A stretch of DNA of 60,509 nucleotides from an uncultured Nitrospinaceae bacterium (lineage in GTDB: Bacteria > UBA8248): NCBI GenBank assembly GCA_964620535.1, contig CAZUHN010000237.1:1-60509 (forward strand), given 5' to 3'. The position numbers were made by a program, and so were the translations under genes. Positions 4,793-35,527 of this stretch are shown in pieces; position 1 is the stretch's first letter, and every line of letters starts with the position of its first letter. The notes beneath the pieces are model-generated. The model was given only the letters and a program-made list of their open reading frames with translations, had not been told where the DNA came from and ran no database searches.

Positions 4793-6267
4793 CGCTCACC
4801 TTTCCCCTCATCGATTGGCCGGTGATCTTTCCCGTCATACTGGTGGTGATTGGCGGGGTTCTCGTCTTGGCGTGGGACACTTTCTTCCGCGGAGATGCGC
4901 GCTCCCTTGTCATAACCCTATCGCTCGGAACGCTCGGAGCCGCGATGGGAGTGACCATTTTCGCCCGCCCAGTGAACGAAACCGCTCTTTCCCTCGGGGG
5001 TTTGTATCTCTTCGATGGATTCACCCAGTTTGTCTTCTTTTTGATTCTGCTTTCGAGCTTTATCTCGATCTTGGTTTCTGCGTCCCAGCCCGAACTGGAG
5101 AAGGCCCCCCCCGGCGAGTACTACTGCCTCATTCTTTTCGCCACCTGCGGGATGATGCTGATGGCGGCGACCCGGAACATGCTCATGGTGTTCATCGGCC
5201 TCGAACTCTTCTCGATATCGCTCTACGTTCTTGCCGGGTATCTGCGCTCGCGGCTACAAGGAAACGAAGCCGCGTTGAAGTACTTTCTGTTGGGGTCATT
5301 CGCGTCCGGGTTTCTCCTTTACGGAATGGCGCTCATCTACGGGACGACGGGCACTGTCGATATCATGAAGGCGGCCGAGCACCTTGCCCAGAATCCCGCC
5401 TCCCGCAGCTTGGCGTTTTTGCTGGGGGTGGGATTCGTTGTGATGGGCCTGGGTTTCAAAGTGGCGGCGGTCCCTTTTTATATGTGGACGCCGGACGTGT
5501 ACGAAGGATCCCCGACCTCGGTGACGGCGTTCATGTCGGTGGGGCCGAAGGCGGCGGCGTTCGCGGCGTTTTTCCGCCTCGTCATCTCGACCGCCCCCCA
5601 CATCGGCGCCGAGATCGGCGCGGTGCTTTGGACGATGGCGGCCCTCACCATGACGGTGGCGAACGTAGTTGCCATATGGCAGTCGAACATCAAGCGGATG
5701 TTGGCGTACTCAAGCATTTCCCACGCGGGGTATCTGCTCGTCGCGCTCGTGGCCGCGAAGGACGGGGGCGACCTGGCGACGGGCGGATTTCTGTACTACA
5801 TGCTCGTCTATTTGTTCATGAATCTGGGGGCTTTTTGCGTTGTGGTGGCGACGGGCGCGGGGGGGAGGGAGCGGGTGGAAATCGAAGAATACGCCGGGAT
5901 GGGCTATACGTGCCCCGGCCTCGCTTTCGCGATGGCGATTTTCATGGTCTCCCTCGCGGGGCTTCCTCCCACGGGCGGGTTTGTCGCCAAATTTTACGTT
6001 TTCAGCGCCGCGGTAAAGGCGGGCCACGTTGCCCTCGTCGTCATCGCCGTTCTCAATAGTGTGATTGCGGTTTACTTCTATCTCCGCATTGTGGTCGTGA
6101 TGTACATGCGGGAGGCCTCTGCGGGGGCGGCCGCTGTAGTGCTGGGCCGGACCCGGCCTTACGCCATCGCCACACTCGTAATCGGGGTGGTGGCCACCCT
6201 GAATTTGGGAATATTTCCGGCTAAATTTATGGAGATCGCCCAGCGCTCGGCGGACCTTTTGAACTAG
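4789..6267 (+). CDS. nuoN: NADH-quinone oxidoreductase subunit N (copy 1)
   Basis: 492 aa with the NuoN signature [37 protein letters not shown] start overlaps the nuoM stop by 4 nt. Confidence 0.94.
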
Positions 6268-6333
6268 GGCGGGGGGGATGGTTTTTTCCCGGGGGCCCGT
6301 GCTATAAAGTTCCCGGCAGTTGGGGACTTTCCT

Positions 6334-6358
6334 GAGCCGCCTCGTTGCGGGGCGGCTC
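6334..6358 (+). terminator. Candidate stem-loop terminator between the two nuo operons
   Basis: GAGCCGCC (6334-6341) pairs with GGCGGCTC (6351-6358) across a 9-nt loop, followed by only TT. The weak U-tract makes this tentative. Confidence 0.3.
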
Positions 6359-6453
6359 TTGCTTGCTGGCCCCGTCTTATATTGCTCCCTTTTTGAAGTG
6401 GCGAAGGGCTCGGCTCTGGCCGTATACCGTTTTGAGGCGAGGTTTCGGGGGAT

Positions 6454-6846
6454 ATGGAATTCGTTTCCGGATTTTTCCGTGAATATCAAGCAATAAATAG
6501 CTACGTTCCCCTTTTTATTTTCACCTTGGTCGCTATCGGATTTGCGGGCGTAACTCTCCTTGTCGCCCTTTTGATTCGCCCGAACCGGCCGGATCCAGAG
6601 AAGAATTCCCCCTATGAATGCGGCATTCCGCCTCTTACCGAGGCGCACGAGCGTTTTTCCATTCGGTTCTATCTTTTGGGAATCCTTTTTCTTCTCTTCG
6701 ATGTAGAGGCTGCATTTCTTTTCCCTTGGGCCGTGCGGTACGACGCGCTTGGGCTTTTCGGCTTCATCGAAATGATGCTGTTCATTTTTATCCTTCTGAT
6801 TGGTTTCTTTTACGCATGGCGGAAGGGGGCGCTGGAATGGGCATAG
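6454..6846 (+). CDS. nuoA: NADH-quinone oxidoreductase subunit A (copy 2 operon)
   Basis: 130 aa with NSPYECG and [15 protein letters not shown] motifs typical of NuoA/ND3. Confidence 0.94.
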
Positions 6847-7313
6847 TTGAAGGAAAATTCAGCGATAATTTCTTAACCACCAAGCTGGATAGCCTAGTGG
6901 CGTGGGCACGAAAGAGCGCCCTTTGGCCGATGACTTTCGGCCTCGCCTGCTGCGCCATCGAAATGATGGCCTCGGGCGCCTCGCGTTACGATTTTGATCG
7001 ATTTGGCGTTATTTTTCGGGCCACCCCTCGGCAATCCGACGTAATGATCGTGGCCGGAACGGTGACCCATAAAATGGGGTCAGTTTTGCGGAAAGTGTAC
7101 GACCAGATGCCCGAGCCAAGATGGGTCATATCCATGGGCAACTGTTCGACATGCGGAGGTCCTTATCCGAACTATGCTGTCGTGCAAGGCGTCGATGAAC
7201 TGGTGCCGGTGGATGTCTATGTGTCTGGTTGCCCGCCGCGTCCCGAATCTTTGATGTGGGGTGTGATGCAGCTTCAGAAGAAAATTGAACAGGAAAAATT
7301 CATCCGCGCATAA
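6837..7313 (+). CDS. nuoB: NADH-quinone oxidoreductase subunit B (copy 2 operon)
   Basis: Within ORF 6618..7313, the ATG at 6837 gives MGIVEGKF...[15 protein letters not shown]...MGNCSTCGG...SGCPPRPE, which supplies the N2 cluster cysteines. It overlaps the nuoA stop by 10 nt. Confidence 0.93.
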
Positions 7314-31732: not shown

Positions 31733-32365
31733 ATGGAGTCGTTATTGAAGCAAATCCTGGAGTTTACTGCCCATCCGGTGATTATTATCTTTGCCTCTGT
31801 TTTTATTTTTTTTCTTCTGGCTTGGCTTGCACTCCCTTTTGCATTATACGGTATTCGGCGCCGCCTTGACCGCATTGTTCAATTGTTAGAGCAGAGTGCG
31901 CAGGTATCTGCCGGAAGAGGGGACGCGTCGGCAGTGCCTCCCGATTCAACGGGTAACGAAAACGTGGCCAGCGCTCTTTTCGTCGATTTACGGAGGGACC
32001 TTATGCGGATAGCCCGTCCCCTTCGTGAGCGGGTATTCGATCAGAAAAATGTTGTCCTGTATTATGAAAGGGGTGGGGGGGATAATGTAGAATTGGTTTT
32101 TCTCTCCCTGCGCGATGAATGGGTTCTCATTTCGTTTCCGATCGAGGAGTTGAGCGTTTCGGTGACTGGTTTCTCTTCCGACCAGTTTCAGAGTCATATT
32201 GCATTGTTTCTCCAAGAGGAGTTCGGTTATTTTTCGGTTCTTAGCCCGGACGGCCGAGAACTCCAGATCCATTTGGAGCCGAGGGAGACCAATAAACTGG
32301 AGTTATTTGTAGGAATAGTGAAGGAGCAGTTAGTGAATTTGGTGGAGAAGGAGTCGGTGAAGTGA
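31733..32365 (+). CDS. Hypothetical membrane-anchored protein
   Basis: 210 aa with one N-terminal TM helix (VIIIFASVFIFFLLAWLALPFALYGI). No motif recognised. Confidence 0.55.
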   Translation: MESLLKQILEFTAHPVIIIFASVFIFFLLAWLALPFALYGIRRRLDRIVQLLEQSAQVSAGRGDASAVPPDSTGNENVASALFVDLRRDLMRIARPLRERVFDQKNVVLYYERGGGDNVELVFLSLRDEWVLISFPIEELSVSVTGFSSDQFQSHIALFLQEEFGYFSVLSPDGRELQIHLEPRETNKLELFVGIVKEQLVNLVEKESVK

Positions 32366-32842
32366 AAGAACTCCTCGGTTTGCTAAAGGAAGTCGATCGT
32401 ATTTTTCGGGACGAGCACACGATACAGCCGTGCGGACGAGTAAGCCCATCTTGACTAAGCTTAAAGGAATATCCCTTCGGTCAGAAGCAAACCGGCGTCG
32501 GCTCGATGCCTTGCGCCAATAGCTGAAGCACCCTGGGGAATCGAGAGGATGAACCCCCGCGCTCTATTTCATCTTTTATTTTGTTGAATTTTCTGTATCG
32601 GGAAGGGAGTTGCCGCCCGAAAGCGGTGAAATGATTCATTCCTGCTGCGGGACCTTCCTTTTTCGTTGATGTTCACGGAAATTTCCGTAAACGCTCATGG
32701 GCGGGCTTTCGCCGGCCGCCGATCTTGACACCCCCGACCCCCGCTGTTAGGTTCGCGCCCGGAAGCGGAAGAATTGTAATTATAGAAAGACTGCGCCGAT
32801 TGCCATAATTGACGTTATTTATATTTTATTGCCTCTTCATTC

Positions 32843-33874
32843 ATGGTTCTCGAAGGTATTCCGCTTTCAGGACATCGGATGACTACTCTCGCCCCACAGC
32901 CCGATCTCTTCGTTCCCGATCCCGACAAACGGGTCGTCCCTTTCATGCGGGACGTATTCACCGTTCCGAAAAGCGGGCGCGAAAAACCCCGTCTCATCGG
33001 TTCGGTTTGTACCGAGTGCGAGGAGTACTTCTTCCCGAAAACGGGCGTCAAAGCGACCTGTGACAACCCCTTCTGCCCGCGAAGCACGAAAGAAACCCTG
33101 TTGAGCGGAAAGGGAAAGCTCCTCTCCGCGACCGTTACGAGATCCTCTGCGGAAGACGAAGAGCGCGCTTCGGCCGTCATTCTCCTTGAAGAAGGGATCA
33201 AGATTAACTCCCACCTCGTGGGCTGGGAGGGTTTTCGGGATCTTCTCGTACCCGGAACTCCTGCCGAGTTGGTTCTCCAGGAAATCGAAGAGAATGACGA
33301 GGGTGCAACCGTGGTGGGATACGCTTTCAGGCTCGTAACGGGAAGGCGGAAGCCAAAATTCCCTGAACTCGAGGAGAAAGGTTCCGAGAGGGGGAAATCG
33401 GCGGAAACGTGTTTCTCTAAATCACAGGAGCGGAAGGTGGAACGGGCGGCGGCGAAAAAAGCTGCGGCGGCCAAGAAGGTCAAAGTCCTCGCCCGGAAAA
33501 AAGCGGCGGCGAAAAAAGCTGCGACGGCCAAGAAAGCTAAAGTCCTCGCCCGGAAAAAAGCGGCGGCGAAAAAAGCCACGGCCAGGAAGGCCAAAGCCCT
33601 CGCGAGGATGAAGGACGCCCAAAAAAGGAAGGACGCGAAAAGAAGGGCTGCGAAAAAGAAAGCGGCCAAAATGCATCTCCCCAAAGCGGCGCGAGGGAAG
33701 GCAAGAGGCCGCCCGCTCCTCTCCAAGGGAAAAGCCAGGAAATCCGTCAAGAAAAATGCCGCCCAGAAAAAACCGGCGGAGAAGACCTCCAAATCCTCCG
33801 TAAGAAAAAAGATCGAAAAGAAGTCCCTCAAGCGAACCTCGCGAAAAAAGAAGGTCATTCGTAGAAAAAGCTGA
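32843..33874 (+). CDS. DUF35-type Zn-ribbon/OB-fold protein fused to a histone-H1-like Lys/Ala-rich repeat tail
   Basis: The N-terminal half has a four-Cys ribbon (CTEC...CDNPFC) followed by the OB-fold pattern SGKGKLLSATV...VILLEEGIKI. The C-terminal ~160 aa is AAKKAAAAKKVKVLARKK-type repeats and a basic tail. Confidence 0.75.
   Translation: MVLEGIPLSGHRMTTLAPQPDLFVPDPDKRVVPFMRDVFTVPKSGREKPRLIGSVCTECEEYFFPKTGVKATCDNPFCPRSTKETLLSGKGKLLSATVTRSSAEDEERASAVILLEEGIKINSHLVGWEGFRDLLVPGTPAELVLQEIEENDEGATVVGYAFRLVTGRRKPKFPELEEKGSERGKSAETCFSKSQERKVERAAAKKAAAAKKVKVLARKKAAAKKAATAKKAKVLARKKAAAKKATARKAKALARMKDAQKRKDAKRRAAKKKAAKMHLPKAARGKARGRPLLSKGKARKSVKKNAAQKKPAEKTSKSSVRKKIEKKSLKRTSRKKKVIRRKS
33446..33613 (+). 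repeat. 57-nt (19-codon) tandem repeat, about 2.9 copies, inside the Lys/Ala tail
   Basis: Copies of GCGGCGGCGAAAAAAGC...AAAGTCCTCGCCCGGAAAAAA begin at 33446, 33503 and 33560. The first two are near-identical and the third has diverged. Confidence 0.85.
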
Positions 33875-33905: not shown

Positions 33906-35072
33906 ATGCGCATTCTTGAAAGCCTCCGGGTAATCGATGCCAGCCAGTTCCTCTCAGGCCCCATCGTTTCTCTCTATCTAGCGGGATACGGCGCGGACGT
34001 CATCAAGGTGGAGCGGCCCGGCGGTGAGGATGCCCGCGCCATTGGGCCCTTCCGCGGTGGTCAAAGTTCCTATTTCATGAGTCTAAACAGGGGAAAGCGA
34101 TCCATTATGGTCGATCTGAAACAACCCCGGGGGGTTGAGGTCTTCAAACGCCTTGCCCGCAAGGCGGATGTTCTCGTCGAAAATTACCTTCCCGGTGTTA
34201 TGGACCGCTTGGGCGTGGGTTACGAAACCCTTCGTACCGAAAACCCAAAACTTATCTACGCCGCTATCTCGGGATTCGGTCAGAGCGGCCCCCAAGCCAG
34301 CCGCCCGGCTTTCGATAGCCTCCTCCAGGCGGCGGGCGGGCTCATATCGGTGACAGGCCCTGTGGGCGGTCCGCCCGTTCGGGTGGGTGTCTCAATTGTA
34401 GACATTTCGAGCGGCCTCTATCTTCTCTCGGGAATTCTCTCCGCCCTTTGGAGCCGTGAGCGCACGGGAGAAGGCGTACGGGTAGACGCTTCCATGCTCG
34501 ATGTGACGGCCAACCTTATGGAAAATCCCGTCTCGCGGCACAGCTTCACCGCCAAAATCCCAGCGCCCGAAGGTCTTTCGCACCCCGTCGTCTCCCCCTT
34601 TTCCGGCTACGCCACCGAGGACGGTCTTATCTTTGTCGCCGTCTCGAACGACAACCGTTTCCGTGTGCTCGTTGAAGCCCTCGGCCGGCCTGAATTGGCG
34701 GAGGACCTCCGCTTCGCCGGGAACAATGACCGCATCAACAACGACGAAGCGCTTCGGCGCATTCTTGAAGATATCCTCACGGCCAAGACCACCGGTGAGT
34801 GGGAAGAAATTCTCATTCCGCAGGGGGTTACGGTGAGCGCCATCAACGATGTCACCCGCCTCAAGGAAAGGTTTCCGGAGGCATTCGTGAACGTGGACCA
34901 TCCCGCCGCCGGTCCCGCGCTCCTGCCGGGTACCCCGCTCAGGTTCAGCAACGCTGAAACGGACTTCTCCTCCCCCTCCCCCCTGGCCGGACAGCACACC
35001 GGCGGAATTCTATCGGAACTCGGATATCGCAGTGAGGAAATCGAAGAAATGCAGCGGGAAGGGGCGGTGTAG
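33906..35072 (+). CDS. Family III CoA-transferase (CaiB/BaiF/formyl-CoA transferase family)
   Basis: LRVIDASQFLSGPIVSLYLAGYGADVIKVERPGGED and the overall length are typical of CoA-transferase family III. Confidence 0.88.
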   Translation: MRILESLRVIDASQFLSGPIVSLYLAGYGADVIKVERPGGEDARAIGPFRGGQSSYFMSLNRGKRSIMVDLKQPRGVEVFKRLARKADVLVENYLPGVMDRLGVGYETLRTENPKLIYAAISGFGQSGPQASRPAFDSLLQAAGGLISVTGPVGGPPVRVGVSIVDISSGLYLLSGILSALWSRERTGEGVRVDASMLDVTANLMENPVSRHSFTAKIPAPEGLSHPVVSPFSGYATEDGLIFVAVSNDNRFRVLVEALGRPELAEDLRFAGNNDRINNDEALRRILEDILTAKTTGEWEEILIPQGVTVSAINDVTRLKERFPEAFVNVDHPAAGPALLPGTPLRFSNAETDFSSPSPLAGQHTGGILSELGYRSEEIEEMQREGAV

Positions 35073-35527
35073 GCGCCACGCGCGCGGAAGCGGCCCAAAG
35101 AAGAGAATCCGCCGGCGGGCTGAAACGGGCGCTTGGACACCCGGCGATTAACCGATATTTCCCAGATAACCTGATGGTACCGTACCAACGTCTGCCCGCG
35201 CGGATGTGCTGAGTCTCTCCTACTTCCTCCCGCCCAGCCTCTTTTCTATCGCCTCCGCCCGCGCCTTGAGCGCGGCGGCCTTGATCGATAAATCCAGGTC
35301 AAAAGATTATTGAAAATTCGCTCATTCAGCATGGACCGGTTTTCGGGGGGAAGGTCAAGGCCATGGCGCCACTCGTGTTCTTCGGCTGGCTTGTTTCGGC
35401 TGTATTTTTCGTCCTCGGATGGCGGATTTGCAAATGAAAGGAAACGGTTAATTCGTAATTCGGGTGACCGGCCGCCCTCCCGGCGCCGGCCGAAATCCAG
35501 TTGGAAATCGGAAAATCACGCTTCACG

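Follow-up and report, generated by a model that had tools for sequence, protein, structure and literature searches.

A DUF35 protein with a long basic tail, encoded beside a family III CoA-transferase in Nitrospinaceae

Canonical DUF35 proteins are helpers that clamp thiolase-fold enzymes. Nitrospinaceae, the main nitrite oxidisers of the ocean, encode a DUF35 protein that continues into a long polycationic tail; we describe its gene from contig CAZUHN010000237.1 of an uncultured Nitrospinaceae bacterium (GenBank assembly GCA_964620535.1), whose positions 1 to 60,509, all 60,509 nucleotides (nt), are called the window here. Another protein of the DUF35 fold, the translation recovery factor of archaea, Trf (Sso2509; 6HTJ), has a proposed nucleic-acid-binding surface (PMC6996347). 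Tails are best described in other families. PhaF and AlgP of Pseudomonas join a structured N-terminal domain to a nucleoid-binding, histone-H1-like C-terminal domain of the KPAA/AAKP type, and the repeat number of algP varies between strains (PMC11894788). Myxobacterial CarD joins an N-terminal domain that binds RNA polymerase and CarG to an HMGA-type AT-hook tail (PMC4374960); the same article, citing Garcia-Heras 2009, gives the HMGA-like and histone-H1-like domains as functionally equivalent, both binding DNA. Our literature search, whose term also matched unrelated DUF35xx names, found no paper on the architecture described here, nor one that connects DUF35 to a CoA-transferase complex or a histone-like tail.

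The reading that we favour, at a probability of about one half, is that the protein is a nucleoid-anchored DUF35 adaptor, with the co-transcribed coenzyme A (CoA) transferase as the leading, though unproven, candidate for its partner. The zinc-ribbon/OB-fold domain, elsewhere a thiolase clamp, would have left its thiolase context and probably still serves as a protein-binding module. Non-specific DNA contacts, made in the minor groove and along the phosphate backbone, are the probable task of the disordered polycationic tail, which would so hold the protein and whatever is bound to it on the nucleoid. The leading candidate for what the N-terminal domain binds is the SUGCT/YfdE-like CoA-transferase of the same operon. 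It is from the comparisons below that we infer both that the tail binds DNA and which partner the N-terminal domain has.

A divergent DUF35 domain fused to a tail

The gene consists of the following parts, with residues numbered in the 331-residue form that starts at ATG 32879.

32879..33874, + strand: coding sequence of the tailed DUF35 protein, 331 residues from the preferred start (343 from 32843)
32933..33352, + strand: DUF35 domain, residues 19-158, comprising a conserved N-terminal strand VVPFMRDVFTVP, the zinc ribbon and the OB-fold (AlphaFold, Foldseek, phmmer)
33008..33076, + strand: rubredoxin-like zinc ribbon, C44-x2-C47 ... C61-x4-C66 (CTEC...CDNPFC)
33353..33871, + strand: polycationic low-complexity tail, residues 159-331 (composition, AlphaFold, homologues)
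33446..33603, + strand: tandem repeat of 57 nt (19 codons) in 2.8 copies (Tandem Repeats Finder, TRF, score 253, 89% matches)
33689..33715, + strand: degenerate AT-hook-like core ARGKARGRP in the tail (motif resemblance only, without a Pfam AT_hook match)

Sequence and model comparisons identify the N-terminal part as a divergent but genuine DUF35. We take the homology as secure because of its phmmer matches, the confidence of the AlphaFold model and the fact that its top Foldseek matches are DUF35 proteins only. A filter-free phmmer search against 1.84 billion representatives gave 148 matches, which beyond a handful of close relatives are ordinary proteins of ~140 residues matched over their full length (E 1e-13 to 1e-4); canonical DUF35 proteins of this size are matched full-length at E 1e-13 to 1e-10, and those checked score well above the Pfam cut-offs in both DUF35 halves. 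The AlphaFold model, made from a 131-sequence alignment, has a predicted local distance difference test score (pLDDT) >90 for residues 11-160. In the Foldseek search against the PDB, the 19 best matches are all DUF35 chains (target TM-scores 0.61-0.74), among them BbsA 7PXP, 6ESQ_E, PhlB/MucB, ChsH2, Shy and Trf; a single-sequence search reaches PhlB and 6ESQ_E at ~1e-5, and canonical DUF35 proteins are also found by profile. Cysteines C44, C47, C61 and C66 are invariant in the 131 aligned sequences. The four-cysteine ribbon and OB-fold of the DUF35 pattern, claimed in the original prediction from the letters of this stretch, are both upheld.

The divergence shows in the second zinc knuckle, which is CxxxxC where canonical relatives have CxxC, and in the profile scores. 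The window protein scores below the Pfam cut-offs for PF01796 (OB_ChsH2_C; 22.8 bits, or 25.9 bits for the window copy in the genome scan, cut-off 27.1) and for PF12172 (zf-ChsH2; 16.3 bits, cut-off 23.2), while four of five relatives tested reach 27.9-31.4 bits with PF01796. In NCBIfam its N-terminal 130 residues align end to end with BbsA, weakly (E 4.6e-6). The net charge of the N-terminal domain is about zero (mean +0.25, mean isoelectric point (pI) 7.2), the same as in canonical DUF35 proteins; considered as a hint of nucleic-acid binding, it was set aside as uninformative. The other option of the original prediction, that the OB-fold itself has been co-opted to bind nucleic acid, neither gains nor loses by it; for such a role Trf is a precedent within DUF35 (PMC6996347).

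Trf has the lowest root-mean-square deviation (rmsd) among the fold matches (2.3 Å, target TM-score 0.74). An RNA or translation factor of the Trf kind, in which the cleft between OB-fold and zinc ribbon would act together with the basic tail to bind mRNA, rRNA or the ribosome, is nevertheless an unlikely identity for the protein. AT-hooks and Lys-rich tails also bind RNA, and a gene for a zinc-ribbon NUDIX hydrolase lies downstream of the tailed gene in one genome (G013); Trf itself is a case of this fold in the service of translation, with possible binding of RNA (PMC6996347). The identity to Trf is however only 19%, with better E-values for BbsA and for the archaeal DUF35 proteins of thiolase/HMG-CoA synthase (HMG, hydroxymethylglutaryl), the N-terminal domain has the neutral mean charge of canonical members, and aIF2-gamma, the partner of Trf, has no bacterial counterpart in that role.

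We surveyed 51 species genomes of the phylum, belonging to families f1 (Nitrospinaceae), f2, f3 and f4. The tailed gene is present in single copy in 39 of the 41 Nitrospinaceae genomes, the two misses being 67% and 79% complete, and the sister families f2 and f3 carry it at 41-46% identity, while none of the seven f4 genomes (93-100% complete) has it. The genome scan yielded 37 tailed loci in Nitrospinota, and a protein search yielded 116 relatives of 205-373 residues with N-terminal domains 62-91% identical; all those read carry a basic tail. Across the tailed family the DUF35 domain is 60-94% identical. A maximum-likelihood tree of the N-terminal domains groups the family as one clade (support 100/99), with a long branch between it and the canonical DUF35 members; its deepest branch, L058, has a tail rich in K/R/A/P. 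By these sequence comparisons the fusion of DUF35 and tail is real, ancient and under selection.

Measured over the same genome pairs, the tailed N-terminal domain is 66-75% identical and the HMG-CoA synthase-fused DUF35 68-70%, with 59-72% for the CoA-transferase and 38-44% for the standalone DUF35 that partners a thiolase. Such constraint fits a demanding interaction surface, and since it is unusually strong, the domain is likely still a protein-binding module.

The original prediction placed the fusion in the open reading frame (ORF) 32843-33874. This plus-strand ORF of 343 residues is confirmed in the ORF list, and both the plus-strand gene and the fusion have held up; the start has not, and is probably ATG 32879. 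We prefer the latter because the gene call on record has 331 residues, AGGA stands 6 nt upstream of this ATG, the majority of homologues start at the equivalent residue, and a promoter-like site lies at a position that fits a transcript starting ~45 nt before it. Two further features concern the start and the strand.

32800..32827, + strand: promoter-like site TTGCCA-16-TATTTT upstream of the tailed gene (consensus scan only, 9/12 matches)
32815..33858, - strand: antisense ORF of 347 residues, not a gene but a by-product of codon composition

In comparison with eight relatives, substitutions in the plus frame are dominated by codon position 3 (e.g., 29/20/99), and this is therefore the coding frame. 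On the opposite strand, the longest open stretch ranges between 65 and 342 codons, and its frame shifts from one homologous locus to another. The minus-strand ORF, whose expression the prediction had named as a threat to the fusion, was thus rejected as a gene: its frame and length are not conserved, and the substitutions track the plus frame.

We give virtually no credence to the fusion being an artefact of assembly, frameshift or strand choice. Low-complexity repeats do assemble poorly, as seen in the frame-shifted tail of one relative (P0008) and in N runs at two loci (L056, L057), and the 347-residue antisense ORF does exist. Against this, the architecture of DUF35 plus basic tail recurs in over 100 independent assemblies, a stop behind the OB-fold (the other threat that the prediction had named) is seen in no relative, and both the codon-position statistics and the lack of antisense conservation back the plus frame. 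Two side observations belong here. The shifted tail frame is also open, and strongly Arg-rich, in the window (33190-33460, + strand, frame +2). P0008, a ~90% relative of 319 residues, ends in this shifted Arg-rich frame through either a real frameshift or a long-read assembly error.

The tail and its AT-hook form

The tail has 173 residues (29% K, 11% R, 22% A), with a net charge of +59 and a pI of 11.8. It passes from a mixed, partly acidic linker into AAKKA..K(V/A)LARKK repeats and then into a K/R/S-rich end; its Lys/Ala repeats on a 57-nt unit followed by a K/R/S-rich end had been read correctly at the outset. AlphaFold gives it pLDDT <50, apart from residues 216-265, which are modelled as a single long helix. 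Every complete homologue has a basic tail, 56-184 residues long, with a net charge of +14 to +63 and a pI of ~11-12; these tails are rich in K/A/T, K/A/P or K/V according to genus and cannot be aligned between genera. Relatives with ~90% identical domains range from 319 to 373 residues in total length, their tails differing by gain and loss of repeat units. TRF did not detect the 57-nt repeat in the nearest relative, L022, so the near-perfect repeat appears specific to the lineage of the window. The core ARGKARGRP, with its one degenerate KARGRP copy, is kept as KAARGKTRGRP in ~90% relatives. In being long, Lys/Ala-rich, mostly of low pLDDT and built on a tandem repeat, the tail fits the description of H1-like/AlgP-PhaF tails, without membership of that type by sequence: it has no KPAA/AAKP units and no significant HC2/hist_H1_lk match.

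One genus, g8 (loci L054-L057, genomes of 2.0-2.2 Mb), has no Lys/Ala tail and carries instead three tandem copies of VKRGRGRPRKHP, whose motif KRGRGRPRK is a canonical HMGA-type AT-hook. PF02178 (AT_hook) matches these three stretches with 17.2 bits, just under its cut-off of 17.4. The repeat that encodes them is as follows.

L054:6471-6642: 69-nt tandem repeat encoding the g8 AT-hook tail, 2.5 copies, 93% matches

At L056 and L057 the AT-hook repeat contains a run of N/X, masked or unassembled. In the tree of N-terminal domains the AT-hook group (100/100) is nested among Lys/Ala-tailed lineages, and because of this nesting, and of the K/R/A/P tail of the deepest branch L058, the AT-hooks most likely replaced an older Lys-rich tail. 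The swap is strong indirect evidence, drawn from sequence, that the tail is selected for DNA binding. It thereby supports one half of the proposal with which we began, that of a nucleic-acid tether for an acyl-CoA-metabolising complex; the other half, the acyl-CoA-metabolising cargo, is plausible but unproven.

Polyhydroxyalkanoate (PHA) granules and polyphosphate had also been suggested as targets of the tail; the granules, and polyphosphate made by PPK1, are disfavoured. We found no PhaC_N and no PPK1 in the genome of the window, which is 93% complete (PPK2 was not searched), and rejected on this ground a PHA-granule tether in the style of PhaF/PhaM and a tether for PPK1-made polyphosphate; both are therefore less likely targets than nucleic acid.

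Shorter Lys/Ala-rich extensions, of ~20-60 residues, occur on several unrelated proteins of the same genome (contigs C74, C39, C245, C95 with two genes, C172, C198, C258 and C9). Judged by eye, the carriers are a HisG-like protein, two cupins, a 2Fe-2S CoxS-like subunit, a hydantoinase-B-like protein, an amidohydrolase, a TIM-barrel protein and a sigma-70 factor. The DUF35 tail is by far the longest of these Lys-rich extensions.

Loss of the thiolase context and the CoA-transferase neighbour

Among the canonical loci recovered outside Nitrospinota, 40 of 43 have an SCP-x-type thiolase gene directly adjacent; they include loci of Actinomycetota and Chloroflexota in which the order is CoA-transferase, DUF35, thiolase, hydroxyacyl-CoA dehydrogenase and enoyl-CoA hydratase. 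Within 6 kb of the tailed gene, a thiolase gene is missing at all 37 loci, as had been noted of the adjacent genes in the window. The genome of the window and four of five other Nitrospinota genomes checked encode two SCP-x-type thiolases each, and every one of these has a DUF35 of its own, in one case a standalone protein of 118 residues and in the other a domain fused to the C-terminus of an HMG-CoA-synthase-like protein. The remaining genome (G005) has one SCP-x-type thiolase only, encoded beside the fusion of HMG-CoA synthase and DUF35, yet it retains the tailed gene. Because no tailed locus has an adjacent thiolase and the thiolases already own DUF35 partners, the partner of the tailed protein is probably not a thiolase.

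The protein could still be a subunit of a thiolase complex that is encoded apart from its partner, be it an SCP-x-type thiolase or an HMG-CoA synthase/thiolase pair, with the tail as a generic device for solubility, condensates or polyanions (polyphosphate, acidic lipid). All known DUF35 partners are thiolase-fold enzymes, the genome encodes two such thiolases as well as the HMG-CoA synthase-DUF35 fusion, and other enzymes of the genome bear Lys-rich extensions; polyphosphate granules are bound by AlgP-type tails (PMC11894788). We consider this quite unlikely, since the thiolases are all supplied with a DUF35, adjacent or fused, G005 keeps the tailed gene with a single SCP-x-type thiolase, adjacency is 0/37, the AT-hook replacement points to nucleic acid over a generic polyanion, and PPK1 and PhaC_N were not found in the 93%-complete genome.

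The two thiolase/DUF35 loci of this genome (C259:111-2815, L007; and C171, L006) were also noted. A 490-residue HMG-CoA-synthase-like protein with C-terminal DUF35, followed by an SCP-x-type thiolase, is an archaeal-type system in a nitrite oxidiser; in a comparison with three other Nitrospinota genomes, the identity of this thiolase is 84-85%. The second thiolase, with the standalone 118-residue DUF35, adjoins a sigma-54 activator.

In place of a thiolase, the tailed gene is followed by a CoA-transferase gene.

33906..35072, + strand: family III CoA-transferase, SUGCT/YfdE-like, 388 residues (PF02515), separated from the tailed gene by 31 nt
35383..35402, + strand: terminator-like hairpin and T-run after the CoA-transferase gene (from a consensus scan alone; shuffled sequence yields at least as many such sites)

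The family III assignment made at the outset is confirmed by a PF02515 score of 382.8 bits over model positions 1-366 of 366. Among solved structures, its nearest relatives are succinate-hydroxymethylglutarate CoA-transferase 9BR6 (E 1.4e-77) and YfdE 4HL6, and the protein is below every NCBIfam equivalog cut-off. The consensus scan found no terminator-like site on the plus strand between the tailed gene and the CoA-transferase gene. Of the 32 loci long enough to show it, 31 have a CoA-transferase orthologue (56-95% identity) behind the tailed gene; the gap between the two has a median of 18 nt, is 18 nt in most Nitrospinaceae and measures 31 nt in the window. Family f4, which is without the tailed gene, has only paralogue-level transferases (≤45% identity). 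The idea of a tether for an acyl-CoA-metabolising complex is supported by this tight, conserved operon and by the joint absence of both genes from f4.

Several points weigh against the adaptor with the CoA-transferase as partner. In G013, of family f2, a NUDIX gene follows the tailed gene and the best transferase is only 44% identical and 74 kb away; in G056 (L039) an island containing a helicase follows it and the best transferase is 40% identical. Because these two lineages keep the tailed protein without an orthologue of the transferase, the latter is not an obligate partner. On the other side of the tailed gene, Nitrospinaceae keep selA-selB in place just as faithfully, though no functional tie is obvious, and conserved gene order by itself is therefore weak evidence. 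Our literature search found no complex of DUF35 with a family III CoA-transferase. As for the tail, that of the window has no significant match to an H1 or AT-hook model in Pfam or NCBIfam; with NF038053 it scores 13.2 bits (E 0.081; cut-off 80), and a precomputed PF07382 match exists for only two relatives. Finally, basic tails may be a habit of the lineage and not a device specific to DUF35.

The same lineages bear on a possible, if doubtful, alternative: that this is an autonomous CarD-like protein of the nucleoid, akin to a transcription factor, whose DUF35 domain binds RNA polymerase, a nucleoid protein or a CoA-type ligand, the CoA-transferase being no more than a neighbour or a target of regulation. 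Where the orthologue of the transferase is gone, the tailed protein is still there at 41-75% identity, and its gene is a single-copy, order-wide core gene. The replacement of an H1-like tail by AT-hooks matches exactly the CarD pattern (PMC4374960), and DUF35 proteins contribute to the CoA-binding sites of their complexes, as summarised in PMC6996347. On the other hand, the 18-nt spacing to the transferase gene is kept in nearly all Nitrospinaceae, f4 is without both the tailed gene and a transferase orthologue, and no DUF35 protein is known as a transcription factor.

The nucleoid-anchored adaptor can be extended to a new bacterial chromatin protein that would recruit a dicarboxyl-CoA transferase, and possibly other acyl-CoA enzymes, so as to provide acyl-CoA locally at DNA, for instance for acylating Lys-rich nucleoid proteins including its own tail. 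We regard this extension as a long shot; if true, it would be a bacterial counterpart of the eukaryotic enzymes that produce acyl-CoA while bound to chromatin.

Other features of the surroundings were also recorded. Between selA and the tailed gene, the window encodes a protein of 210 residues (31733-32365, + strand) with a single membrane helix at its N-terminus and without a family match; many loci, though not all, have a weak homologue (26-41% identity) at this position, loci of the deep families among them. It was considered as a third partner and rejected, since it could be detected in just some of the family and is missing from the largest genus. The f2 locus in G013 (L110, G013:C2:297500-309500) has a tailed DUF35 of 187 residues with a short tail (5666-6229), then the zinc-ribbon NUDIX hydrolase (6305-6883), and further downstream a Peptidase_C26 gene that some Nitrospinaceae loci have as well. 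Immediately downstream of the DUF35/CoA-transferase pair, different genomes show a hotspot of defence-type insertions (L002:10362-15161, L039:6749-10932, L001:11543-15456); these carry a Type ISP restriction enzyme, an SNF2 helicase together with unknown genes, and a pair made up of SMC/AAA and Schlafen-AlbA.

Significance and comparison with known systems

The tailed DUF35 gene is a single-copy core gene, order-wide, in the main marine nitrite oxidisers, and is without an assigned function. Should the adaptor reading be true, this would be the first DUF35 member without a thiolase-fold enzyme as partner in its own locus and with a nucleic-acid-binding module, and the role of DUF35 would extend from enzyme clamp to nucleoid-anchored adaptor, with family III CoA-transferases as a possible new class of partner. 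The replacement of an H1-like tail by AT-hooks on one domain is a natural evolutionary experiment, pointing to DNA as the selected target of the tail. The family also provides a well-sampled case of bacterial polycationic tails on metabolic proteins, a habit that is still unexplained.

With the canonical DUF35/ChsH2-type proteins (BbsA 7PXP, 6ESQ/6ET9 chain E, PhlB/MucB, ChsH2, Shy) the tailed protein shares the zinc ribbon and OB-fold (target TM-scores 0.61-0.73), the four zinc-binding cysteines and detectable sequence homology. It differs in its basic tail of 56-184 residues, where the ~140-residue members have none, in having a family III CoA-transferase gene instead of a thiolase gene as neighbour (thiolase adjacency 0/37 vs. 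40/43), in the CxxxxC form of the second knuckle (vs. CxxC) and in the long branch that separates it from them. Trf resembles it closely in fold (rmsd 2.3 Å) and is a case of the DUF35 fold at work outside the acyl-CoA enzyme complexes, but it is 19% identical, has no basic tail and works with aIF2-gamma, and the Nitrospinales domain is not notably basic.

PhaF and AlgP are alike in architecture, with an N-terminal domain followed by a disordered, Lys/Ala-rich tail of variable repeats; the logic of a cargo on the N-terminal domain and the nucleoid on the tail is presumed to be shared. Their N-terminal domains are unrelated to that of the tailed protein (phasin or coiled coil vs. DUF35), and their repeat is KPAA where ours is a 19-residue AAKKA...K(V/A)LARKK unit. 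CarD has an N-terminal domain of a different family, and a link to RNA polymerase has been observed for CarD and not for the tailed DUF35; the likeness lies in the tail, for the tailed DUF35 family presents in nature the interchange of an H1-like tail and an RGRP AT-hook tail on one conserved N-terminal domain.

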